DNA of 52,704 nt from positions 1-52,704 of the IMG/VR virus record IMGVR_UViG_3300046715_000106. One strand, written 5' to 3'. Position numbers and translations under genes: made by a program. This DNA is from a virus. Taxonomy: Duplodnaviria > Caudoviricetes. How positions within the stretch are numbered: position 1 is the stretch's first letter; the number at the start of each line of letters is the position of its first letter. Below are positions 5,627 through 52,704 of this stretch, one piece after another. The notes under the pieces are model-generated. The model was not told where the DNA came from. It saw only the letters and a list, made by a program, of their open reading frames with translations, and did no database searches.

Positions 5627-6910
5627 TCACACCGCCCGCAACGTTCGAACACCCTCGGTCTCCGGGGCCATCCGCGCGAGCACCTTCGCGGCCACGTCCT
5701 CGGGGGAGTGCTGATAGATCCACGTGACCTTCGAGCCGCGTTCGTGGCCCATCACGGTCTGCGTGTCCTTCTCATCGATCCCGAGCTCCTTGAGCCACGT
5801 CGCGAACACGTGCCGCAGATCGTGCACCCGCGGCCACCACTCCAGCCGACCCGTCTCCGGGTTCTTGACCTGCCTTGCAAGACCCGCGTCCTGGATGGCC
5901 GGCACCCACACACGGCGGAAGTTGTGCCGCGTGAGCGTGCCCCCCTGCGGCCCACGGAAGACAAGCTCCTTCGGCACGAGGTCGTACGGGTCGTCGCCGA
6001 TCGGTGTCACCTTCTCCGACGGCCGCCACCGATCCACCATCGTGCGGACCGCGTCGGCCGCCTGCGGGGTGAGCGGCACTGTGCGGAACCCAGCGACGCT
6101 CTTAGGTGCAGGCTTCCGGAAGAGCCGCCCGTGGTCCTCACTGAGCACTTCCTTCACCTTGAGGTGGTTAGCCTCCAGGTCCACGTTCTCCCACCGCAGC
6201 GCCGTCGCCTCACCCCACCGCAGACCGGTGTGCTCCAAGAACACGACCAACGGCCGGTAGTACATGGGCAGATGCTCGACGATGAGCGCGCACTGTGCAC
6301 GGCTCGGCGGCCGAAGATCATCGGGGTGCTTGGTCTGCGGCTCCCCGATGTCGAGGTCAGCAGCCGGGTTGAAGGGGATGCGGCGCCCGTCCTTCACTGC
6401 GGCCTTGAGCATCTGGTTCAGGACCTCGTGGACCTTCTTCCGCGTGTGGTAGCCCTTCACTTCCTTCGTGATCCATGCCTGTAGCTCGATGTACTCCAGG
6501 TCGCACAGCCGCCACTCGCCCCACTTCGGTTTGATGTGGGCATTCCAGTTGGACACCTTCCGGTTCGTCGTCGTGACCGCCCGGTCCGGCTGCGCCTCCC
6601 ACCACTTCACCCACCACTGCGCGAGAGTGATCTGCCCGCGCTTGGGGTCGGAGTACGTCTTGGTGCGGACTTGGTCGCGCATCTTGTCGAGGTGCGCCTC
6701 GGCCGCCTTGAAGCCGCCGTCTTCGATCGAGAAGCACTTCTGCTTCTGGTTTCCGGCGCGATCCCGGTACCGGGCCTGCCACGAACCCGTGCAGTCCCGG
6801 CGCCTGTTGCGCTCGCCGTACTCCTCGGGCGGGTACTTGGCCATGCACAGCTGGCATCCGCAACTCTTCGCGCGCAGCTGCCGCGGGTTGTTCGAAGCCC
6901 TACGCCCCAT
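5627..6910 (-). CDS. int: Tyrosine integrase
   Basis: TGLRWGE, HDLRH and MGH...TWIY catalytic motifs; adjacent to att core. Confidence 0.97.
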   Translation of the reverse strand: MGRRASNNPRQLRAKSCGCQLCMAKYPPEEYGERNRRRDCTGSWQARYRDRAGNQKQKCFSIEDGGFKAAEAHLDKMRDQVRTKTYSDPKRGQITLAQWWVKWWEAQPDRAVTTTNRKVSNWNAHIKPKWGEWRLCDLEYIELQAWITKEVKGYHTRKKVHEVLNQMLKAAVKDGRRIPFNPAADLDIGEPQTKHPDDLRPPSRAQCALIVEHLPMYYRPLVVFLEHTGLRWGEATALRWENVDLEANHLKVKEVLSEDHGRLFRKPAPKSVAGFRTVPLTPQAADAVRTMVDRWRPSEKVTPIGDDPYDLVPKELVFRGPQGGTLTRHNFRRVWVPAIQDAGLARQVKNPETGRLEWWPRVHDLRHVFATWLKELGIDEKDTQTVMGHERGSKVTWIYQHSPEDVAAKVLARMAPETEGVRTLRAV

Positions 6911-17177: not shown

Positions 17178-18980
17178 GTGGACAACGTCCGCCACATGCC
17201 GCGCGACCAGGCGGACCAGGACGGCCTCAACCGCGTAAGCCCCCACGACGCCGAGGCCGAAAACTGGATGGCCGGCGTCATCATGCACAGCCGCACCGCC
17301 TACCTCGAATGCGCCGAAGTCCTCGACCGCGACGACATCTACCAGCCCGCGGTCCGCCTCATCTGGGACGTCGTCGGCGGCATGGTCGCCGAGCAGAAGC
17401 AACTCCACCCCATCACCGTCCGCGCCGACATCGAGAAGCAGAAGCAGCTCCGCCTCGTCGACGAGGGCCGCCTCCTCGACCGCCTCGGCGCCGAGACGAT
17501 CAGCCCGACGATGGCGCAGGCCTTCGCCGAACGCATCGCGGACGTCGCGAAGATCCGCCGCCACGACGAGCACGCCAACCGCGTCAAAGCACAGATCATG
17601 CTCGGCGCCACCGCCGAAGAGCTCGACAAGCTCGACGCCGACCACCGCCAGTACGAAGAGCGCCGCGCCACCACCGGCCACGGCCCCTCACACCTCACCG
17701 CCGCGTTCATTGACTGGAACCCGTTCTTCGCCACCGACTTCGGCCGGGTCCAGCTCCTGCCCGGCCGGCTCCTCGGCCCCGGCCAGCAGATCACCATCGT
17801 CGGCGAGGGCAAGGCCGGTAAGAGCCTGGTTGTCCAAGAGTGGCTGTGGCGCATGGCCACCGGCCAAAGCTTCCTCGGCGACCGCCCTCAGGCCCCCATC
17901 CCCCTGCTGTACGTCGACGCGGAGAACGGCCACCAGGACATTCAGGAACGGTTCGTGTCCTACGGCGGCGGCCCCGGACGGATGGGCCTGCTCACCTACG
18001 CGTCCTTCCCGCCGCTGCGCCCCCTCGACACTGCGGGCGGCGGCGCCGACCTGATGGCCATGGTCAAAGAGTCCGAGGCCCAACTCGTCTGCCTCGACAC
18101 CGTGTCCCGGTTCATCTCCGGCCCGGAGAACGACGCCGACACGTGGCTGTCCCTGTACCGGCACACGCTGCTCCCGCTGAAGCGCGCCGGCATCGCCAGC
18201 GTGCGCTTGGACCACATGGGCAAGGACGGGGAGCGGGGCGCCCGCGGGTCGTCCGCGAAGACCCAGGACGTCGACCACGTGTGGGAGCTGCGGGCGCAGG
18301 GCGGCGGCACGCTCGTGCTGAAGCGCACGCACACGCGTACCGGGATCGGCCCGGATGCCTTCGTCGTGGTGCGGCAGTCGCAGAAGGACGGAGACCGCTA
18401 CCGGCCGGGCTGCACCCGCCACGTCCTCATGGACTACGACCGCATGGAGCAGGCCGCCGAGGGCTCGGTGGAGTGGCTGATCCAGAAGATCGACGACCTC
18501 GGTCTGCCGAACGATGCGGGCAACCCGCGGACGATCGCAGCGCTCGCACACGCACAGATCAAGATCGGCAAAGACAAGATCGCGACGGCCGTCCGGGCAC
18601 GGAAAAACCGGGACAACTTGGGTTCCCCGGAAACCTTCCCCGAGACCTTCCCCGAAGGGGTTCCCCGGGAACCTTCCCCGGGAACCCCCGCGGGAACTGA
18701 AAAACCCCAGGTCAAACATTCCCCGGGAACCCTCCGGGAACCTTCCCCCGACCCGGGTTCCCCCCCTTCCCCCCCTCTACGAGAGGGGAAGGGGGAGGGA
18801 ACGCCCGCCACACAGGTTCCAAGCGGGCCCCCCTGCACCATCTGCGACCGCCCCATGACCACCGACTGGGCAAGCCGCGGCTACGACACCCACATCGGCT
18901 GCGACCCCGCCACCGGCAGCCACCCCGACAGGCCCCAACACCCCACCGCAGACGCCCACACCGAAAGGCACAGCGCATGA
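17178..18980 (+). CDS. Replicative helicase/initiator (DnaB-like N-domain, RepA/AAA_25-type ATPase, C-terminal extension)
   Basis: PHDAEAE DnaB-N motif, Walker A GEGKAGKS, Walker B LVCLD, DHMGK, ARGSSA. Confidence 0.85.
   Translation: MDNVRHMPRDQADQDGLNRVSPHDAEAENWMAGVIMHSRTAYLECAEVLDRDDIYQPAVRLIWDVVGGMVAEQKQLHPITVRADIEKQKQLRLVDEGRLLDRLGAETISPTMAQAFAERIADVAKIRRHDEHANRVKAQIMLGATAEELDKLDADHRQYEERRATTGHGPSHLTAAFIDWNPFFATDFGRVQLLPGRLLGPGQQITIVGEGKAGKSLVVQEWLWRMATGQSFLGDRPQAPIPLLYVDAENGHQDIQERFVSYGGGPGRMGLLTYASFPPLRPLDTAGGGADLMAMVKESEAQLVCLDTVSRFISGPENDADTWLSLYRHTLLPLKRAGIASVRLDHMGKDGERGARGSSAKTQDVDHVWELRAQGGGTLVLKRTHTRTGIGPDAFVVVRQSQKDGDRYRPGCTRHVLMDYDRMEQAAEGSVEWLIQKIDDLGLPNDAGNPRTIAALAHAQIKIGKDKIATAVRARKNRDNLGSPETFPETFPEGVPREPSPGTPAGTEKPQVKHSPGTLREPSPDPGSPPSPPLREGKGEGTPATQVPSGPPCTICDRPMTTDWASRGYDTHIGCDPATGSHPDRPQHPTADAHTERHSA
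18615..18825. repeat. Iteron-like GGGAAC/GTTCCC/CCTTCCCC cluster, candidate origin
   Basis: Dense direct and inverted copies inside the helicase 3' end. Confidence 0.7.
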
Positions 18981-25066: not shown

Positions 25067-25110
25067 CCCGCCATCCGTTCGCCACCCTCGCCGCCACCCA
25101 GGAGCTCTTC

Positions 25111-25578
25111 ATGACCACGCCGCCCGCCGTACTCGAACAGCGCCGCGCCACCGTGCGCCAACTGCACGCGGCCGGCCACTCCAACCGCGCCATCGCGCGC
25201 CAGCTCGGCGTCAGCAAGGACGCCGTGGCGCGCGACCTGCGAGCCACCGAGCCACCCCCCGGTGAGCCGCAGGCCGCGCCGGACGCGCCACCCGCCGAGA
25301 CGGCTGTGCACGCCACCAGCGAGCCGGACCGAGCCACGCCCGCGCCGCCCATCCCGACCAGCGGCAACCCAGTGAAACCGTGGCTCGTCCACGACATGGA
25401 CCCGCGGCTCGTCCAGGACCTCAACATCCTCATCGACCCGCGCACCGGCCGCCTGCCCGCGCCACTGGAGCGCGCCATCAGCATCGCCGCCGCGGCCCGG
25501 CGCGCCGCCTGGCGCGGCAGCGAGTCGAGCCAGGCGCGCGACGACCGCGCCACCGCGAGCCAGGGCGGCGCGCGATGA
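25111..25578 (+). CDS. HTH DNA-binding protein with Pro/Ala linker
   Basis: GHSNRAIARQLGVSKDAVARDL. Confidence 0.78.
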   Translation: MTTPPAVLEQRRATVRQLHAAGHSNRAIARQLGVSKDAVARDLRATEPPPGEPQAAPDAPPAETAVHATSEPDRATPAPPIPTSGNPVKPWLVHDMDPRLVQDLNILIDPRTGRLPAPLERAISIAAAARRAAWRGSESSQARDDRATASQGGAR

Positions 25579-26168
25579 GCGACCAGAAGCCGGGCGCAGA
25601 CGAGCTCCGGATGCGCGGCATCCTCCGCAGGCGCGGTGTCGGGTATGACGCCGGACCCCCTGCTGTCCCACCGGCCCTGCCCGACGGGTACGAGCCCGCG
25701 CAGGCCGACGCCGACTGGTGGGACGACCTCTACGACGAGGACGACCCCGGGCCCGCAGAAGGGGAGGAGCCCGCGGCGACGGACGCTGCCCCGTCCGGGC
25801 CCGGCTGGTGGCAGACGCAGCCCAACTACTACCCGCGCCCCCACATGCCGGCCGCCCTCACCCGCACCCGCGACCGCGCCGACGCCGCGCTCAGCCCCCG
25901 CACCCGCAAGCTCCTGTACAACGCGTCCGCGGCCGGGGCCGGTTGGGTCCTCGGCCTCTACGACCAGCTCGCCCACGCGATCGCGGACTGCGGCCAGCAG
26001 TACAGCATCAGCGGCGCCCTCACCCTCGGCATTGGCGCCTGCCTCCTCATCGCCCACGTGTGGGACCGGCGCACCCGCCACTGGTGGCCCGGCATCGCCT
26101 GGGTCGCCCGCATCCCGCTTGCCACCGCCCTCACTGCGCTCGCCCTGTGGGCGCCCGCGTCAGCCTGA
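25575..26168 (+). CDS. Membrane protein with acidic N-terminus
   Basis: About three C-terminal hydrophobic helices; coupled. Confidence 0.75.
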   Translation: MSDQKPGADELRMRGILRRRGVGYDAGPPAVPPALPDGYEPAQADADWWDDLYDEDDPGPAEGEEPAATDAAPSGPGWWQTQPNYYPRPHMPAALTRTRDRADAALSPRTRKLLYNASAAGAGWVLGLYDQLAHAIADCGQQYSISGALTLGIGACLLIAHVWDRRTRHWWPGIAWVARIPLATALTALALWAPASA

Positions 26169-26181
26169 ACAGGGGAAAACT

Positions 26182-26694
26182 ATGTTCACGCACATCATCG
26201 CCGCCGCCCCCGCCATCAGCGTGGAAGGCGGACGCATCCTCGGCTCGGTCGGCGCGGGCGGTATCGCGACCGCGCTCACCGTGATCCTCGTCGCCGGGAT
26301 CCGCGAGCCGAAGGGTGGTGGAGGCGCCGGCCCGGGCGGCGGCGGGGGTGGCGGGAAGAAGGGCCGCATCCGCAAGCGGCTGACCAGCGACCAAGCCCAG
26401 TGGACGGGTGTCGCCGCGGGCACGTTCTACATGACCGCCGGGTCCATCTGGACGGTCGGCAAGAACCTCTCCGACGCGTTCGCCACCGTCTTCACCGGCG
26501 GCGGGTTCGGCACGGCGGGCATGGGCGCGGTCAGCCTGCTGCTCGCGGCGCTCATGTACTTCCGTGAGCTGGCCCCGGCGAAGGCTGCGTTCGTGGGCGT
26601 GTTGGCGGCGGGGGTGTGGTCGCAGGCGGGCGGGATTTGGGGTCTGCCGCAGGCGTTGATCCTCACCGGGGCGCATGCGGTGGGCGCCATCTAA
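26182..26694 (+). CDS. Gly/Ala-rich polytopic membrane protein
   Basis: Several GxxxG-rich hydrophobic helices. Confidence 0.75.
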   Translation: MFTHIIAAAPAISVEGGRILGSVGAGGIATALTVILVAGIREPKGGGGAGPGGGGGGGKKGRIRKRLTSDQAQWTGVAAGTFYMTAGSIWTVGKNLSDAFATVFTGGGFGTAGMGAVSLLLAALMYFRELAPAKAAFVGVLAAGVWSQAGGIWGLPQALILTGAHAVGAI

Positions 26695-27353
26695 TGAAGA
26701 TCATTACGAAGGCAGGGGAGCGGCTCCCCCAATGGCTGGCCACCGAGATCCGGCCCGTCCTCGCATTCACCGGAGCAGGCCGCGCCCTCGTGACCGGGTC
26801 CCGGATCCTCACCCGCCGCGGATGGGACGCCCTCAGCGAACGCCTCTACGGGTGGGAAAAGTACGGGGCCCTGGCGTTCACCGGATACGCGGCCGTCTAC
26901 ACCGGCGGCCACGCCCCGCACATCGCACGCTTCGTCATCCCCGCGGCCGCCGTCGTCTGGTGTGTCGCCGCATGGTGGGTGGCCCCGCCCGTTGTGCAGC
27001 CGGCCGTCGAGGACACCGAACCGGAACCCGACGAGCAGCCCGGCGCCAGCGACCCCCAAGGGGTGTACGAGGCCACCCTCGAATGGATCTGGCAACAGAT
27101 CGGCGACGCCCAAGGCGTACACCTCCGCGACCTCCTCGCCCACGCCCACGCCCACGGCATGTTCGAGGACCTGGAAGTGACCGACCTCAAGGGCCACTTG
27201 GAGCGGTGGGCGATCCCCATCCGCAAGCGCTGCCGAGTCCGCGGACTCGGGGTGACCGTCGGCATCCACCGGGACGACCTGCCAGCCCCTTCCCGCCCCT
27301 CCCCCGGGCGAGAGGCCCAAGACCCCCCGGAATCTGAACTACACGCTGGGTGA
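26694..27353 (+). CDS. Membrane protein with C-terminal winged-helix-like domain (TraB-like ends, no ATPase)
   Basis: Two TM helices, acidic linker, GVHLRDLL...LKGHLERWAIPIRKR...GIHRDDL. Confidence 0.65.
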   Translation: MKIITKAGERLPQWLATEIRPVLAFTGAGRALVTGSRILTRRGWDALSERLYGWEKYGALAFTGYAAVYTGGHAPHIARFVIPAAAVVWCVAAWWVAPPVVQPAVEDTEPEPDEQPGASDPQGVYEATLEWIWQQIGDAQGVHLRDLLAHAHAHGMFEDLEVTDLKGHLERWAIPIRKRCRVRGLGVTVGIHRDDLPAPSRPSPGREAQDPPESELHAG

Positions 27354-27401
27354 CCTGCGAAACCACACCCCGACTACGCCCCGACTACAGGGGCCGACCA
27401 C
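27336..27401 (+). repeat. Short direct repeats (CCGACYAC / ACYAC)
   Basis: CCCCGACTAC at 27368 and 27379, CCGACCAC at 27394, degenerate copies at 27336 and 27360. Confidence 0.55.
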
Positions 27402-27417
27402 AGGACGGAGGCCCGGG

Positions 27418-27669
27418 ATGCCGTACGTGTACCGCTGCCGGAAGTGCCGCGCATCAAGCCCCCCGGGCCCCCGAAGAACCGCCGAGGAGTACCGGCAGGA
27501 GCACCGCGACGAGAGGCACGGCGGGCTCGTCCCGCGCGGCGAAGAGATCGTGCGGGTACCAGGGAGCACCCCGAATCCGGACGGCAGATACGTCAGCACG
27601 GGTGGGCTCCTCGGTCTGCTCGGTCTGCTCGCGGTCGCCGAGTTCCTGGCGCGGGTCCTCGGCCGGTGA
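27418..27669 (+). CDS. Zinc-finger protein with C-terminal TM anchor
   Basis: CRKC...H....H plus hydrophobic tail. Confidence 0.7.
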   Translation: MPYVYRCRKCRASSPPGPRRTAEEYRQEHRDERHGGLVPRGEEIVRVPGSTPNPDGRYVSTGGLLGLLGLLAVAEFLARVLGR

Positions 27670-27812
27670 CCGGTTGCCCGGACCGCCTGCACCCGCGGGC
27701 GGTGCGGGGAGCCAGGCACCGCCTGAACTCCACACCCCGGGACGGCTGTTCCTCCGCCAAGACGTCCAGCCGCCCCGGGCCCATCCCGATCACACGAGAC
27801 AGGAGCGCCATC

Positions 27813-27959
27813 ATGGCACTCGGCTGGACGACCAACCCCGAGCCGGACGACGAGCGGCTGCAAGGACACGAGACCGTCTACCAGGCAAGCCGCGGCGGGC
27901 ACTTCCCCGTCGAGGAGAAGCCCGTACCGGGAACACCGCAGGAGCCGCAGCAGAGTTGA
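27813..27959 (+). CDS. Small hypothetical peptide
   Basis: RBS AGGAG, 48 aa. Confidence 0.55.
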   Translation: MALGWTTNPEPDDERLQGHETVYQASRGGHFPVEEKPVPGTPQEPQQS

Positions 27960-28063
27960 CGCGCCCTGCCACACTGGCGGCAGGTCGTCAGTGCCAGGCC
28001 CCGCCACGCAACCCCCCGTCGTGGCGGGGCCGTCCCACACCAGCACAGCGATAGGACAAGACC

Positions 28064-28213
28064 ATGACGGACAACAGGCCGGCCCGCCGCACGCACACCC
28101 GCCTCGCCGACATCGATCCGACCGCGCAGTCGACGGTGCGCTCGGCTGGCAGGGTGCGGGACATCCCGGGCCGCCGGCCCGCCAAGCCGATCACCTTCGA
28201 CTCGGCGCTGTAG
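28064..28213 (+). CDS. FxSxx-COOH RiPP precursor-like peptide
   Basis: MTDNRPARRTHTRLADIDPTAQSTVRSAGRVRDIPGRRPAKPITFDSAL*; RBS AGGA; followed by terminator; absent from the ORF track. Confidence 0.72.
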   Translation: MTDNRPARRTHTRLADIDPTAQSTVRSAGRVRDIPGRRPAKPITFDSAL

Positions 28214-28223
28214 CACCCATACG

Positions 28224-28264
28224 CGAAGGGCCCCTGCTGGCTTGGGAGCAGCAGGGGCCCTTCG
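28224..28264. terminator. Terminator hairpin between convergent genes
   Basis: 16-bp stem CGAAGGGCCCCTGCTG / CAGCAGGGGCCCTTCG. Confidence 0.8.
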
Positions 28265-28285
28265 TCATCCCCGAGACCGGCCGCG

Positions 28286-28738
28286 TCAGTTCTTCGCCTC
28301 GTCAGCCTCCAAGCTGAGCGTCAACGCCGACCCGCCCGCCAGGATGGTCCGCGCATCGTCAGGACACGGCGACCCCTCGATGCTGGCGTTCTCATCGCCG
28401 AGACACTCGTGCTTGGTGTACGCCTCGACAGCATCGTTGACCTTGCCGATCTCCGCGACAGTCCGCGGGTACGAGTCCTTCCCCCCAGCCTCCGTGACCG
28501 CCTGCTCCAGATCGGTGACGGCGAGAGCAATGTCCGTGAGGTGGTCGGCGCAGGCCTCGTCGCCGGCCTGGTTGCAGATCCCGGTGTCGGCTTTGGCCGC
28601 GGCTTCGAGCTTCGGTGCCCACTCCGCGGCGAGGCTGCTGCTGCTCGGGCTGGGCTTGCTGTCGCTGCCGTTGCTGCTGCTGGTGCATGCGGTGGCGGCG
28701 GCGAGGATGAGCGCGGCGGCGATGGCGTGTCTGTGCAT
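28286..28738 (-). CDS. Lipoprotein with four Cys in the mature domain
   Basis: MHRHAIAAALILAAATAC lipobox, Ser-rich linker. Confidence 0.78.
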   Translation of the reverse strand: MHRHAIAAALILAAATACTSSSNGSDSKPSPSSSSLAAEWAPKLEAAAKADTGICNQAGDEACADHLTDIALAVTDLEQAVTEAGGKDSYPRTVAEIGKVNDAVEAYTKHECLGDENASIEGSPCPDDARTILAGGSALTLSLEADEAKN

Positions 28739-28854
28739 GGTGGTGCCCCCCTTGTGTTGCCGGTGAGGGTAGATGACCGGCGGGTTGGGGGGTGAGGGGT
28801 TCGCGTGGATTCGTTCGCGAGGAGGCCCCGCTCGGTGTCCGGGCGGGGCCTTCG

Positions 28855-29106
28855 TCATGCGGGGAGTTGGGCGTCGCAGTCCGGGCAGAGGTAGGCCAGC
28901 AGCTCGCCCGTGACGACGCTGCGCACCTCGGCCGGGGTGAGGTGACGGCAGGCGCCCTTCACGTACTCGGGGCGGCCGTCAATGCCGGTTACGTCGATCC
29001 ATTCCCAGCGCGGGTCGAGATCGAGGGTGGGGCCGAAGACTGCGTCGAGTATTTCCGCCCCGCGGGCCAGCTCTTGGAGCCGGGCCTGGTTCTCGGCGTC
29101 GCTCAT
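28855..29106 (-). CDS. Small zinc-ribbon protein
   Basis: CRH...CPDC. Confidence 0.6.
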   Translation of the reverse strand: MSDAENQARLQELARGAEILDAVFGPTLDLDPRWEWIDVTGIDGRPEYVKGACRHLTPAEVRSVVTGELLAYLCPDCDAQLPA

Positions 29107-29369
29107 GTGGCCGGCTCCTCGCCCGGACGCACCGGCGGTTGCGCCTCGAACACCTCGGCTACGGCCCCGTCGTAATCCCGAACCTCGAACCGTCCGGTCG
29201 GGACGAACGTCGCCTGCGCATACGTGCCGTCACCAGGCGGCGTCCAGTCGTCGGGCGGGGGCGGTGGAAGGGCCGTCCGGTCGATCCAGCGGCCGTCCCA
29301 GCGTGGTGGGAGGAACCAATCGGGGGCGCCGGGTGCTGCGCGGAGAACGACGTAGTCCGGCTCGCTCAT
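29103..29369 (-). CDS. Hypothetical protein
   Basis: Coupled; PTGRFEVRDYDGAVAEVFE. Confidence 0.6.
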   Translation of the reverse strand: MSEPDYVVLRAAPGAPDWFLPPRWDGRWIDRTALPPPPPDDWTPPGDGTYAQATFVPTGRFEVRDYDGAVAEVFEAQPPVRPGEEPAT

Positions 29370-29608
29370 GCGTTCTTCTCCTCGCCGCCCGGCGGGCGCT
29401 CGCGCAGGTCGGTCCGTGCGCCCTGGCCCGGCCGCTCGAACCCGATGATCGTGGCTGGCTTCCAGACCGGGGAGCGGCCGAACACCTGGTCGGGCTCGGG
29501 GAGTTCGCCGCGCTTCCGGGAGCGGTAGGTGCGCACGGTCTGTGGGCTGATGCCCCAGTGTTCGGCGACGTCGGTGATGGTCCAGTAGTCGGCGTTGGGG
29601 TCGGGCAT
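29366..29608 (-). CDS. AlpA/MerR-type HTH regulator
   Basis: WTITDVAEHWGISPQTVRTYRSR..LPEPD..FGRSPVW...RPGQGARTDL. Confidence 0.82.
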   Translation of the reverse strand: MPDPNADYWTITDVAEHWGISPQTVRTYRSRKRGELPEPDQVFGRSPVWKPATIIGFERPGQGARTDLRERPPGGEEKNA

Positions 29609-29681
29609 GGTCCGCCTCGTTGTCGTTGTGGTGTGGACAAAGTCTAGCGGGTCCAGCCTCGAATACTTCGCTGCATTCATG

Positions 29682-29717
29682 TTGACAAGGTTCCATCGGG
29701 AGGTCTAACCTTGTCAA
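29682..29717 (+). promoter_or_regulatory. Sigma70/HrdB-type promoter overlapped by an 11-bp inverted repeat
   Basis: TTGACA-N18-TAACCT; TTGACAAGGTT-N14-AACCTTGTCAA. Confidence 0.75.
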
Positions 29718-29746
29718 TATCAAGGCGACAAGGTGAGGGGAACGAC

Positions 29747-30136
29747 ATGAGGCACACGGCGAACGAGACCAGCACCACCACCCTCACCCGCCTCATCAAG
29801 GCCCTCGACGCCAAGCACCCGGTGACGATCACCTACACCAAGGCCGACGAGACCGTCACGGTGAGGACGATCGAGGTCTACGACATCGTGGTCAGCGCCG
29901 CCGGCGACATCCTGCTGAAGGCCATGGACCGCGAGACCGGCGAGTCCCGCTCCTTCCGCCTCGACCGCCTCGTCTCGTACACGGTCCACCGCACCGAGTA
30001 CACCGTCGCCCGGCCGGCCGCCGACGAGCCCAAGACCCGCCCCACCCACGGCCTCGCTTCGGTCACCGTGCTCTACCCGGTCGACCTCCCCGCCCTCGCC
30101 CGCGTCGAGCTGCTCGCCGACGCCCTCGCCGCCTGA
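29747..30136 (+). CDS. Stand-alone WYL-domain protein
   Basis: VTITYTKAD..VTVRTIE...D..TGESRSFRLDRL. Confidence 0.85.
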   Translation: MRHTANETSTTTLTRLIKALDAKHPVTITYTKADETVTVRTIEVYDIVVSAAGDILLKAMDRETGESRSFRLDRLVSYTVHRTEYTVARPAADEPKTRPTHGLASVTVLYPVDLPALARVELLADALAA

Positions 30137-31367: not shown

Positions 31368-31931
31368 ATGAATACCGGTAACGAGCCACCCGTACCGGCC
31401 GAGCCCAACCAGCCCGCCGGCCAGGACGAAGCCGCGCCCGCACGCGCTGACGGCTGGTACCGCGCCCGCGACAGCCGAGGCCACTTCTTCCAAACCCTCG
31501 ACAGCGCCGAACGCGACGCAGCGGCCGCACGGCTCGCGGCCCAAGGCCGGAAGTACCAGGACATCGCCGAGGAACTCGGATACCACGGCAGGGGCGACGC
31601 CTGGCGCGCCGTCCAGCGGTGCCGCAAGGCCGCCCTCAAAACCGCCGGCGCAGAGCTCATCGCGACCGAGGCTGCCCAGCTCGATGACCTGTACGTTGCC
31701 GCGCTCGAAGTCCTCGAACGCGACCACTACGCCCACGGAAACGGCAAGGTCGTCACCATGGACGGCGTGCCCGTCCTCGACGACGGGCCGAAGCTCGCTG
31801 CAATCCGGGAGCTGCGGCAGATCCGCGAGTCCTACCGCAAGCTCACGGGCGCCGACGCGGCACAGAAGATCAACGTGGAAGGTGCCGTGCGGTACGAGGT
31901 CGTTGGCGTCGACGCAGAAGACCTCACGTGA
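31368..31931 (+). CDS. terS: Terminase small subunit, probably leaderless
   Basis: HTH (YQDIAEELGY); coupled to TerL; TACCAT 6 nt upstream of ATG. Confidence 0.75.
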   Translation: MNTGNEPPVPAEPNQPAGQDEAAPARADGWYRARDSRGHFFQTLDSAERDAAAARLAAQGRKYQDIAEELGYHGRGDAWRAVQRCRKAALKTAGAELIATEAAQLDDLYVAALEVLERDHYAHGNGKVVTMDGVPVLDDGPKLAAIRELRQIRESYRKLTGADAAQKINVEGAVRYEVVGVDAEDLT

Positions 31932-33277
31932 CGACCGCGCTCGACCAGGACGCGATCGTCCGGTACGAACCCCGCGGCGCGGCACGCGAGTTGTTCAAGG
32001 CGCGGGGCTCCGAGGTCGTCCTCGCGGGCCCGGCCGGCACGGGCAAGTCGCTGGCCGCGCTGTTCCGCCTGCACCTTGCCGCGCTCCACAACCCCGGCAT
32101 CCGCTGCCTCATCGCCCGCAAGACCGCGGTATCGCTCGGGTCGACGACGCTGGTGACGTACGAGAAGAAGGTCGCCGCGGACGCCCTCGCCCGGGGCATC
32201 GTGTCCTGGTTCGGCGGGTCGGCGCGGGAAGCCGCCTGCTACCGGTACTCCAACGGCTCCGTCATCGTGGTCGGGGGCCTCGACAAACCGGAGAAGATCC
32301 TCTCCGCGGAGTATGACCTCGTGTTCTGCGACGAGGCGACCGAGCTGACGGAGACCGACTGGGAGACGATCGGCACCCGGCTCCGTAACGGAGTCCTGTC
32401 GTGGCAGCAGCAGATCGCGGCGTGCAACCCGGCGCACCCAACCCATTGGATCAAGCAGCGGTCCGGGCGCGGCCAGATGCGGATGCTGGTGTCCCGGCAC
32501 CGCGACAACCCCGCATACGTGCTCGCGGACGGCACGTTCACAGACAAGGGCCGCGACTACTTCGCGAAGCTCGACGCGCTCACCGGTGTCCGCCAACTCC
32601 GCTTCCGCGACGGGATCTGGGCTGCGGCCGAGGGCTTGATCTATGAGTCGTTCGATGAAGCGCTGCACGTCATCGAGCCGTTCAAGATCCCGAACGAATG
32701 GACGCGGTGGCTCGGCGTCGACTTCGGATACACCAACCCGATGGTCATGCAGTGGTGGGCCGAGGACGGCGACGGCCGCCTCTACCTCTACCGCGAGACC
32801 TACCGCACGCAGCGCCTCGTCGAGGACCACGCGAAGACCGCCCTGTCCCTGATGCGGTACCCGCGCGGGCAGTGGAAGGAGCCGCAGCCCCGCGCGATCA
32901 TCTGCGACCACGATGCGGAGGACCGGGCCACGCTGGAGAAGCACATCGGGTTGGGCACGGTCGCCGCGAAGAAGACGGTGTCCGACGGGATTCAGGCGGT
33001 GCAGTCGCGGCTGAAGGTCCAAGACGACGGCCGGCCCCGCCTGTTCATTGTGCGGGGTGCGCTCGCGGAGCGGGATGACGCGCTCGCCGAGCGGTCCCTG
33101 CCGACCTGTACGGCCGAGGAAGTCGCGGGCTACGTGTGGGCGGTGAAGCCGGGGACGGGCGGGGCGGGGCTGAAGGAGCAGCCGCTCAAGGAGAACGATC
33201 ACGGGCTTGATGCCCTGCGCTACGTCGTCGCGGAGCGGGATCTCGGCGGGCGGCCCCAGTTGAGGTGGGTGGGATGA
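31928..33277 (+). CDS. terL: Terminase large subunit
   Basis: GPAGTGKS, LVFCDE, CNP, GVDFG, DHGLDALRY. Confidence 0.95.
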   Translation: MTTALDQDAIVRYEPRGAARELFKARGSEVVLAGPAGTGKSLAALFRLHLAALHNPGIRCLIARKTAVSLGSTTLVTYEKKVAADALARGIVSWFGGSAREAACYRYSNGSVIVVGGLDKPEKILSAEYDLVFCDEATELTETDWETIGTRLRNGVLSWQQQIAACNPAHPTHWIKQRSGRGQMRMLVSRHRDNPAYVLADGTFTDKGRDYFAKLDALTGVRQLRFRDGIWAAAEGLIYESFDEALHVIEPFKIPNEWTRWLGVDFGYTNPMVMQWWAEDGDGRLYLYRETYRTQRLVEDHAKTALSLMRYPRGQWKEPQPRAIICDHDAEDRATLEKHIGLGTVAAKKTVSDGIQAVQSRLKVQDDGRPRLFIVRGALAERDDALAERSLPTCTAEEVAGYVWAVKPGTGGAGLKEQPLKENDHGLDALRYVVAERDLGGRPQLRWVG

Positions 33278-33467: not shown

Positions 33468-35042
33468 GTGGGCAAGACCCTCTTCGGCTCCCTCGGCCGA
33501 GCAGCCGCGACGTTCGCCAACCGCACCCCCGTACCCTTCGCCCCCACCACCGGCCGCGCCGGACTCGGCTCCGGACTCCTGCGCCCCGCCGGGCAGGAAG
33601 CCCAGATGCGCGCCATGGGCGGCAGCAGCACGCTGTACGCGATCGTCGACCGCATCACCACCACGTACGCCGGCGTCGAGTGGAAGCTGTACCGCAGCTC
33701 CTCGACTGGCCGTGACGAGGATCGTGTCGAGGTCACCCGGCACGCGGCGCTCGACTTGTGGAACAAGCCCAACGCGTTCATGACCGGGCCGTCGTTCCGT
33801 GAGTCGGCGCAGCAGCACGAGGAACTCACCGGCGAGCAGTGGTGGGTGATCGCCCGCCACGAGAACAGCACGATCCCGCTGGAACTGTGGCCGGTGCGCC
33901 CCGACCGCATCGAGCCCGTCCCGGACGCGGAGGAGTTCCTGCTCGGCTACCTGTACCGCGGCCCGTCCGGCGAGCGCGTGCCGCTCGGTGTCGACGACGT
34001 GATCAGCCTGCGCCGCCCCAATCCGCTGGACCCGTACCGCGGTATGGGTGTGGTGCAGACGATCCTCATGGACATCGACGCCACCCGCGCGAGCGCCGAG
34101 TGGAACGCAAACTTCTTCCGCAACTCGGCCGAGCCGGGCGGTGTCGTCGAGGTCGACCGACGTCTGGACGACGGCGAGTTCAACGAGTTCCGCGACCGGT
34201 GGGCCGAGCAGCACCGCGGCGTATCGAACGCGCACCGGGTGGCCGTGCTGGAGAACGGCCTCAAGTGGGTGGACCGCAAGTACTCGATGCGGGACATGCA
34301 GTTCACAGAGCTCCGCGGTGTGAATCGGGAGATCATCCGGGAGGCGTTCGGGTTCCCCAAGCCCATGCTCGGTGCGACCGACGACGTCAACCGGGCCAAC
34401 GCTGAGGCGGCCGCCTACGTGTTCGCCCGCTGGCTGATCCAACCCCGGCTGGAACGGATCCGCGAGATCCTCAACACGCGGCTCCTGCCCATGTACGGGA
34501 CCACAGGCAGCGGCCTGGAATTTGATTTCTGCAACCCCGTCCCCGAGGACAAGGAAGCAGACGCCCGCACCCTGCAACAGCGCGCCCTCGCGGCCGCGTC
34601 GCTGCACGGCGCGGGCTGGTTCTCCGCCGACATCCTCTCCGTGGTCGACCTCCCCGAGATGGGCTCCCGTGACCCGCAGGAGCAGCTCCTCGTCGACATC
34701 GTCCGCGGCGCCCCATCGACGGCGCCCGTCATCCTGCCGCTCCTCGGCTTCGACATCGCGCCCGGTGCGCTTGCCCCGGCCGCGTCGAACGCATGGCAGC
34801 CGCCGGCGTGGGCGGTCCCGGAGATCGAAGCGGCTCAACGCTGGGTCGTGAAGATCGTCGACGACGGCGACACCTGCCACAACTGCCGCGAGCAGGACGG
34901 CCGCACCTACAAGAACCGGCAGCAGGCGTACGAGGACTATCCGGGCGGCGAGGGCTACGTGCGCTGCGAGGGCGTGGCGTACGGCAACGCCTGCCGCTGC
35001 AAGGTCGTCAAGCGAGGCCGTAAGGGCGGTGACGGCGAATGA
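33468..35042 (+). CDS. Portal protein (HK97 family) with Cys-rich C-terminal extension
   Basis: LWPVRPDRI, PNPLDPYRGMG, FFRNSAEPGG, DMQFTE, EAFGFP motifs. Confidence 0.93.
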   Translation: MGKTLFGSLGRAAATFANRTPVPFAPTTGRAGLGSGLLRPAGQEAQMRAMGGSSTLYAIVDRITTTYAGVEWKLYRSSSTGRDEDRVEVTRHAALDLWNKPNAFMTGPSFRESAQQHEELTGEQWWVIARHENSTIPLELWPVRPDRIEPVPDAEEFLLGYLYRGPSGERVPLGVDDVISLRRPNPLDPYRGMGVVQTILMDIDATRASAEWNANFFRNSAEPGGVVEVDRRLDDGEFNEFRDRWAEQHRGVSNAHRVAVLENGLKWVDRKYSMRDMQFTELRGVNREIIREAFGFPKPMLGATDDVNRANAEAAAYVFARWLIQPRLERIREILNTRLLPMYGTTGSGLEFDFCNPVPEDKEADARTLQQRALAAASLHGAGWFSADILSVVDLPEMGSRDPQEQLLVDIVRGAPSTAPVILPLLGFDIAPGALAPAASNAWQPPAWAVPEIEAAQRWVVKIVDDGDTCHNCREQDGRTYKNRQQAYEDYPGGEGYVRCEGVAYGNACRCKVVKRGRKGGDGE

Positions 35043-51909: not shown

Positions 51910-52704
51910 ATGGCCACACCAATGACGGCCGCCGAGCGGCTGGCCGCGTACAAGTACGAGGGCCTCACGGCCTTCGAGCACGACGGGTGGCGCACCCACA
52001 ACCGGGACACGGCGACCGGGAAGACGTTCGGCCCGGTGGTGGGGGTGCTCATCCACCACACGGCCGGGCACAACGACAAGGAGATCTGCTACAAGGGCAG
52101 ACCCGATCTCCCGGGCCCGCTGTGCCACAACTGGCTGGGCAAGACGGACGGCCTGTGGATGATAGGGCAGGGCCGGGCGAACCATGCCGGGCTCGTCGAC
52201 CTCGACGTCGTCAACGCCCTGCGCGCCGAACAGTCCCCGCTGCCGCACGACGACCAGGCCAACTACGACGGCAACGACGTCCTGTACGGGCTGGAGATCG
52301 AAAACCTCGGCGACGGCCACGACCCGTACCCGGCCGAGCAGTACCGGCAAGCGGTGCTGTGGGCGGCCGCGCACTGCCGGCACCACGGCTGGACGGAACG
52401 TTCCGTCGCCGGGCACAAGGAAGTTCAGCCCGGGAAGATCGACCCATCGTTCGACATGGACGTGTTCCGGGCGGACGTCCGCAAGCAGCTCGCGATACGG
52501 CCCGACACCCCGGCCACCCCGAAGCCCACGCCGTCCCGGCCACGCGTAAGCGTGAAGCGGCTACGCGAAGCCGCAGAGGCCGACCCTCCCGCGAGGCAGG
52601 GCCACGTCACGTACATGGCCGGCGTGAACCTCGTCGAGGCGGCCCTCGTCAAGGAGGGGCTGCTGTACAAGCGGTACGCCGGGGACGGTTCGTTCGGCTC
52701 GGCG
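51910..52704 (+). CDS. Endolysin, N-acetylmuramoyl-L-alanine amidase (continues across the junction to 268)
   Basis: LIHHTAG, ANHAG, GLEIEN, GHKE...KIDP Amidase_2 motifs; absent from the ORF track because it has no stop before the window end. Confidence 0.92.
   Translation, partial: MATPMTAAERLAAYKYEGLTAFEHDGWRTHNRDTATGKTFGPVVGVLIHHTAGHNDKEICYKGRPDLPGPLCHNWLGKTDGLWMIGQGRANHAGLVDLDVVNALRAEQSPLPHDDQANYDGNDVLYGLEIENLGDGHDPYPAEQYRQAVLWAAAHCRHHGWTERSVAGHKEVQPGKIDPSFDMDVFRADVRKQLAIRPDTPATPKPTPSRPRVSVKRLREAAEADPPARQGHVTYMAGVNLVEAALVKEGLLYKRYAGDGSFGSA
52563..52704. repeat. Terminal direct repeat, right copy
   Basis: Matches 1-142. Confidence 0.97.

Follow-up and report, generated by a model that had tools for sequence, protein, structure and literature searches.

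Temperate phages of hosts that own an Fxs operon recurrently carry the precursor gene of that operon without its maturase, and keep it under selection. We describe one such gene in the window, by which we mean the whole 52,704-base stretch of DNA that was analysed (IMG/VR virus record IMGVR_UViG_3300046715_000106). The gene encodes a 49-aa peptide with the C-terminal core PGRRPAKPITFDSAL-COOH. Judged by homology, this peptide is a genuine FxsA-family RiPP precursor of the FxsBH-linked subfamily. We tentatively argue that phage fxsA could well be a mimic of a host ligand, matured by host FxsBH, that silences a TIR/STAND-TPR death module.

The phage

The window is a temperate tailed Streptomyces phage with 69% G+C (marker genes in Table 1). 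No tRNA gene was found in it. An HTH_3 protein (1695-2900) lies beyond the integrase, which is 5.6 kb from the left end. An earlier reading made from the letters alone (the sequence-only reading) called this a complete genome. That is unconfirmed, since IMG/VR classes the record as linear and CheckV puts its completeness at 77%. The right end also falls inside an open ORF (51910-52704, +). The stretch 27400-29200 was found in soil-metagenome DNA runs only. Cultured phages gave no megablast match to 27000-30000, and tblastn of the peptide against 50,697 of their records gave only 6 chance-level matches (E = 3-7).

Table 1. Coordinates of the peptide gene, its flanking signals and other phage features in the window
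Feature	Position	Strand	Remark
Integrase	5627-6910	-	
RDF-like protein and exonuclease			temperate tailed phage genes
DnaB-like helicase/primase	17178-18980		
83-aa phage gene, phrog_32136	27418..27669	+	function unknown; PHROGs E = 1.2e-10
Upstream G+C-rich hairpin	27997..28031	+	-32.1 kcal/mol, z = -4.9, 0/200 shuffles as good
Shine-Dalgarno-like AGGA	28053..28056	+	7 nt before ATG, within GATAGGA
Orphan fxsA-type RiPP precursor gene	28064..28213	+	49 aa plus stop
Downstream hairpin	28223..28265	.	19-bp stem with one bulge; -38.4 kcal/mol, z = -5.5, 0/200 shuffles as good
Convergent block	28286..29680	-	190-aa lipoprotein-like ORF, 83-aa ORF, 104-aa HTH DNA-binding protein
Large terminase	31928-33277		
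Portal	33468-35042		

The peptide gene and its signals

The sequence-only reading had claimed a 49-aa ORF with a ribosome-binding site, and both are present. The peptide runs MTDNRP...LADID...GRV...PITFDSAL-stop, with HTRLADID and GRV in the leader. G+C by codon position is 0.62/0.62/0.96, a pattern typical of coding DNA when the genome has 69% G+C. The GATAGGA before the start codon is common to the window and the phage copies L007 and L008.

Two strong hairpins flank the gene, both without a T-tract. The upstream one separates the peptide gene from the early-region genes before it and lies about 33 nt from the ATG, which leaves scant room for a private promoter. It is kept in the related phage locus L008, and blastn homology between the window and L008 begins at 27997. 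The downstream hairpin, which separates the peptide gene from the convergent lipoprotein-like one, is likely a bidirectional terminator. It had been described as the peptide gene's own 16-bp terminator. The strong hairpin structure is real, but its place between convergent genes means that it need not belong to the peptide gene alone, and without a T-tract it is missed by a simple terminator scan. Scans of 27300-29000 for sigma-70 promoters and T-tract terminators returned 0 sites; such scans are uninformative for Streptomyces-type signals.

The 83-aa gene upstream is syntenic with the peptide gene in L008, L073-L075, L078 and L079 by tblastx. Between it and the upstream hairpin is a small ORF (27814-27959, +) of 48 aa that begins MALGWTT and has an AGGAG about 8 nt upstream; NCBIfam gave no match to it. 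The convergent block on the other side is outside the peptide unit. Its 104-aa HTH protein is the phrog_597 DNA-binding protein (E = 9e-23), and its 190-aa ORF has a signal-peptide-like N-terminus with a Cys. This minus-strand block is not shared within the window's phage cluster. Related phages have both flanks but different DNA at 28286-29680, which marks the stretch as a variable accessory (moron-like) slot.

Homology to FxsA

The ORF had been taken for an FxSxx-COOH precursor, and the HMM similarity agrees. TIGR04268 matches the window peptide at 17 bits (E = 0.0051), over profile positions 4-44 of 44 and residues 10-49, which falls below the curated cut-off of 28 bits. One can imagine that a sub-threshold score means the peptide is not an FxsA. 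This is ruled out because true FxsBH-adjacent peptides score alike: the host peptide L003 reaches 17.4 bits, so the low score typifies the whole subfamily and not the phage copy. Among the phage copies, L008 reaches 21.4 bits and L007 does not match TIGR04268.

A host-only profile is more telling. It was made from 41 distinct FxsB-adjacent Streptomyces peptides and no phage copies. It matches the window ORF at 78.0 bits (E = 2.4e-23), as the sole match among 793 six-frame fragments at E <= 10. Against this profile the remaining 8 phage copies reach 75-101 bits. The C-terminus of the window peptide reads F45-D-S47-A-L49-stop and fits F-x-S-x-x. The motifs of the subfamily are H-T-[PR]-L-x-x-I-D, G-R-V and T-F-[DN]-[SA]-x-x-COOH; the window has HTRLADID, GRV and TFDSAL. 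The C-terminus is conserved in homologues, with KPITFDSAL invariant in 12/12 of those aligned. Five relatives came up in a word-indexed protein search, with Streptomyces as the named source of two, and the last 15 residues are invariant in these relatives. An exhaustive profile search of 1.84 billion representative proteins gave just 50 clusters at E <= 0.001. Their lengths span 43-85 aa and the match is C-terminal in every one, so there are no fused forms at this threshold. Pfam, PHROGs and PADLOC had no match to the peptide.

The window peptide is like the FxSxx-COOH precursors (FxsA, TIGR04268, with FxsB, TIGR04269) in that it is small, ends F-D-S-A-L-COOH and aligns through to the C-terminus. 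Its host homologues also lie directly 5' of FxsB-family genes. It is unlike them in its score and its ending; canonical members in the same host genomes end, for example, in ...NNSF or ...FSSALL. The window copy also lacks a maturase, a hydroxylase, FxsC and FxsT. By score and by adjacency to FxsB it thus falls outside formal membership of TIGR04268.

The leader at 28091-28150 (HTRLADIDP.A.ST.R) resembles a host clade with the core ...PVTFNSGV (L055/L060), while the window core sides with the PITFDSAL clade. By these resemblances the peptide may be a mosaic of leader and core, but the tree is too short to tell. It has 50 peptides and 60 columns, with 29/47 inner branches open. The phage label changes 4 times on it, against 8.5 in shuffles.

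The host operon

The host homologue is immediately 5' of the best-scoring FxsB in 5/5 Streptomyces genomes, with a gap of 35-165 bp. These five FxsB score 578-595 bits (cut-off 370). For three of these first five loci, the operon proteins were compared with NCBIfam and Pfam. The order is fxsA-fxsBH-(AAC3-like)-fxsC(TIR-like)-fxsT(NTPase-TPR). For the enzyme downstream of host fxsA, NF040587 ("FxsBH, inactivated beta-hydroxylase extension form") is a further match. This enzyme gene is followed by a gene with an AAC(3)-like acetyltransferase fold (PF02522) and then by the TIR-like FxsC (NF040588 and TIGR04276). FxsT combines a ParA-like KGGVGR ATPase, TIR_2, NB-ARC, DUF7779 and TPR (NF040586, about 1000 bits). 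The sequence-only reading had linked such peptides to FxsB-type enzymes, often in loci with a TIR-like FxsC and an NTPase-TPR protein. This is borne out by 24/24 full-length host loci, all of which have FxsBH, FxsC and FxsT. The AAC(3)-like gene is present in 22/24. The 2/24 without it are L101 (genome G223) and L102 (G285); G285 is also the genome with a PNTFNSAL core and a prophage orphan.

The association with FxsBH is tight. Among 401 sampled species genomes of Streptomyces (E <= 1e-4), 49 had a match, with 51 matches in all. FxsB adjoins 49 of the 51 matches (30/30 and 19/19), one is a prophage orphan (G285 contig 11) and one is spurious, being inside a 1361-aa frame. A scan of 185,579 species genomes for the pattern KPITFDSAL-stop found 18 places. 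FxsB is just downstream in 17, and the remaining one is an orphan in a prophage of G003. A family-level sample (401 genomes, E <= 1e-6) matched 7 genomes; 5/5 new loci were FxsB-adjacent and no new orphan appeared. In Streptomyces, then, every real homologue examined is directly 5' of an FxsBH gene, save two prophage copies.

Five of the genomes (G001-G005, L019-L023) also have separate canonical FxSxx-COOH peptides above the TIGR04268 cut-off, with endings ...NNSF, ...NNAF and ...FSSALL. These adjoin other FxsB paralogues (424-452 bits). Several Fxs-type systems thus coexist per genome.

FxsB-type enzymes form cyclophanes on their precursors, as stated in PMC10114670, which cites Nguyen et al. 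2020. An October 2026 preprint (10.64898/2026.10.19.760177) bears on what the operon does. The passages that concern us describe FxsC (active TIR) and FxsT (ParA, inactive TIR) as a predicted antiviral "apoptosis" system of multicellular bacteria. They also predict the FxsAB peptide to be an antiviral molecule or alarm signal. As presented there, this is a comparative-genomic prediction only. PADLOC on the operon gave a candidate-system match only (PDC-M28B, on the ParA part of FxsT). We consider it plausible that the Fxs module is anti-phage immunity, as predicted from its TIR, NB-ARC and TPR architecture together with the PADLOC candidate and the preprint. The precursor family of these FxsBH-type operons (NF040587 FxsBH, NF040588/TIGR04276 FxsC, NF040586 FxSxx_TPR) includes the window peptide. 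The window peptide differs from them in being phage-encoded and alone, and the immune role of the operon is, in those passages of 10.64898/2026.10.19.760177, a computational prediction.

Orphan copies in unrelated phages

No radical SAM or HExxH maturase had been recognised in the window, and searches with FxsB (TIGR04269), Radical_SAM (PF04055) and HExxH (TIGR04267) bear this out, with no match at E <= 10. The same holds for FxsB elsewhere. The KPITFDSAL-stop pattern occurs in 9 IMG/VR records besides the window, and FxsB was found in 0/10 of these virus records, window included. CheckV rates the nine others at 100, 85, 49, 14, 64, 86, 100, 12 and 75%, so 2/10 are rated complete and 8/10, including the window, incomplete. 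Orphans of the second host clade (...STFNSAL) were not found in a pattern-limited scan of viral contigs. Two of the records (L072 and L076) are proviruses of one isolate, as their names carry the same genome number. Each has its own orphan fxsA, of 51 aa and 49 aa with different leaders, and neither record has FxsB.

The backbones differ. The window clusters with L008/L077, L073-L075, L078 and L079, in which the upstream genes (window 25100-27770) and the peptide gene are syntenic. L007/L072, L076, L080 and the G003 prophage (L069/L091) have essentially the peptide gene alone in common with the window; the G285 prophage (L070) also has a helicase in common with it. The gene is thus present in at least four unrelated phage backbones with nothing else nearby in common. 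Within +/-3 kb, no neighbouring gene recurs in every phage lineage, which rules out a hidden phage maturase beside the peptide gene. Where the locus is long enough, the gene lies between the early/replication genes and the terminase-portal module.

The phage copies are under purifying selection. The test used 9 phage copies, leaving out three records whose peptide is identical to L078. It must be noted that the last nine codons were ascertained by the search pattern, so their conservation in 8/9 copies is not independent evidence; the remaining copy (the G285 prophage, found by profile) has a different core. Outside the search pattern, codons -24..-10 have a pN/pS of 0.23 at a pS of 0.58. For codons -15..-10 it is 0.11. 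The ORF frame has the lowest pN/pS among the six.

This result bears on the two simplest explanations. The first is a chance ORF in G+C-rich DNA. High-G+C genomes are rich in spurious ORFs, and 36 ORFs of at least 25 aa overlap 27000-29500. However, a chance ORF does not account for the GC3, the score against the host-only profile or the pN/pS rank of the frame, and we give this explanation virtually no weight. The second is that the gene is a neutral passenger, a host gene fragment gained by illegitimate recombination and without function. The gene is small, it has no partner genes and no detectable promoter, and its homology to host DNA does not extend past the ORF. Yet the phage copies have diverged at synonymous sites while their pN/pS stayed low, the gene recurs across unrelated backbones, and the start, RBS and stop are intact in all phage copies. 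A passenger is therefore very improbable. The sequence-only reading had proposed that the phage captured the precursor, and on this point it is well supported by the homology, the lack of FxsB in the virus records, the pN/pS and the several backbones.

The same reading had also thought of titration. In this scenario the phage peptide would be a dominant-negative decoy. Its leader would bind FxsBH, its later handling would differ, perhaps because of a shorter N-terminus, and the host's mature peptide (an alarm or antiviral molecule) would be blocked in its production or release. The leader motifs are kept in the phage copies, as a decoy would need. Of the distinct phage copies, 7/9 have 47-51 aa. 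The lengths are 56 and 61 aa for the two prophage copies and 53-66 aa for hosts, and all of these figures rest on heuristically chosen start codons. The phage copies also have their own upstream GATAGGA ribosome-binding region in common. Nevertheless the core is identical to that of the host, so maturation should yield the same product and not a block. The strongest constraint falls on the phage core (codons -15..-10), which a pure leader decoy does not need. The N-terminal stretch that is missing from the phage copies is poorly conserved in hosts too, according to the consensus of the host-only profile. We find a decoy improbable.

Lysogens and core matching

Both lysogens that were found also own a chromosomal fxsA-fxsBH-fxsC-fxsT operon. 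In G003 this is L004/L093 and in G285 it is L043/L102. With the operon in 49/401 genomes, 2/2 would happen by chance about 1.5% of the time, at a sample size of two. It was the host locus that first led to G003, and the unbiased pattern scan recovered this genome again.

The cores of G285 are informative. The host core is ...GPNTFNSAL and that of the prophage is ...RPNTFNSAL. Among the survey host loci PNTFNSAL occurs in 1/49, namely in G285 itself. The prophage and host genes have a DNA identity of 118/180 (66%) and differ synonymously within the common core. With this identity and these differences, the prophage gene does not look like a fresh copy or the product of a recent conversion. The comparison argues for a prophage core that has been kept matched to the host's rare variant.

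The presence of the operon in lysogens also suits another explanation, which is lysogenic conversion. Here the prophage fxsA would be matured by host FxsBH and would strengthen or re-tune the Fxs output, shielding the lysogen from other phages. The added or variant peptide could signal alarm, have antiviral activity itself or prime the module. The carriers all look temperate: the window has its integrase and RDF-like protein, and several of the records are proviruses. Flanked by hairpins, the gene sits in the variable accessory stretch that separates early genes from packaging genes, and such a moron-like spot of temperate phages fits conversion as well as anti-defence. The preprint's proposal for the FxsAB peptide, in the passages of 10.64898/2026.10.19.760177 that treat it, points the same way. 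Against this, the gene is on the same strand as the early lytic-type genes and directly after them. The short distance from the hairpin to the ATG shows no evident separate lysogenic promoter. A second identical core would also be of little gain to a host that already has fxsA. We think conversion is possible but unlikely.

A proposed mechanism

Our preferred reading is that the peptide silences the host module. The computed evidence is that the gene is homologous to fxsA, is an orphan, is under purifying selection, turns up in unrelated phages and shares its lysogens with host fxs operons. We infer that it is translated, that its product is matured in trans and binds FxsT, and that the effect is silencing. 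A phage copy without a maturase can act only via host Fxs proteins. It retains the leader motifs (HT[PR]L..ID, GRV) and the core PITFDSAL-COOH. The peptide would be made from the phage genome, and the resident host FxsBH would mature it in trans. The matured phage peptide would then mimic the host's own FxsA ligand and hold the TIR/STAND-TPR death module silent in infection or prophage induction. If host FxsBH is long-lived, a ligand supplied by the phage could keep the module quiet as host gene expression collapses.

The place of action is suggested by the operon itself. It encodes no exporter, and the end of FxsT is a large cytoplasmic array of TPR repeats, so the matured peptide would most simply be an intracellular ligand of FxsT. 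The direction matters too. If FxsA were to activate the module, the phage would gain nothing from FxsA in lytic growth.

One can take the silencing reading further. Fxs operons might be a peptide-gated, NLR-like (TIR-ParA-STAND-TPR) form of suicide immunity in which the cyclophane is the "all is well" ligand. Temperate Streptomyces phages would have repeatedly stolen the precursor alone, to be finished by the host, with a core matched to that host. This wider scenario is bolder and we hold it as doubtful. If it is true, phage fxsA would be the first RiPP precursor gene with an anti-defence role, and its antidote would be finished by the host itself.

Relation to known phage strategies

Phages are known to carry peptide signals with TPR receptors. 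Examples are arbitrium (AimP/AimR) and the Rap-Phr cassettes on Bacillus prophages, and a Clostridioides phage carries agrD. Phage fxsA is like these in being a short phage pre-peptide with a C-terminal ligand, and TPR receptors have a counterpart in the TPR array at the end of FxsT. The difference is that those phages encode receptor or processing genes, whereas for phage fxsA both the candidate receptor and the maturase are host-encoded.

Orphan antitoxin-type counter-defences are documented in phages, according to the parts of PMC3475682 and PMC11257639 that treat them. The examples given are the pseudo-ToxI of phage PhiTE, the orphan DarG-like antitoxins of T4-like phages and the anti-DarTG mimic of ICP1 (PMC3475682, PMC11257639, 10.1101/2023.12.14.571748). 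As described there, the likeness is that the phage carries the neutralising or regulatory part of a host system and the effector genes are absent. Those antitoxins are self-acting RNAs or enzymes, however, whereas phage fxsA is a RiPP precursor that depends on a host maturase, and its neutralisation is putative.

Implications

We found no report of a phage-borne fxsA in the literature searched, although supplementary gene-neighbourhood tables may bear on the point. Nor is one mentioned where 10.64898/2026.10.19.760177 has passages on counter-defence, decoy, mimic, prophage and peptide. Three papers that came up have no relation to Fxs. These are on ADP-ribosylated triceptides (PNAS 2026, PMC12912966), aminomalonate (PMC12186529) and ocean RiPP phages (PMC11118758).

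The chemistry of FxsA and FxsB is known. That the TIR-like and NTPase-TPR genes form an antiviral suicide module is a very recent prediction, made in the passages of that preprint. The phage copies are independent genomic evidence for a role of Fxs in phage-host conflict. Unrelated phages keep the precursor under selection, their hosts own the operon, and one core is matched. At the very least, a 150-bp phage gene is an experimental handle on the Fxs system. It would also be a new viral use of a RiPP pathway, in which the phage brings the substrate and borrows the enzyme.
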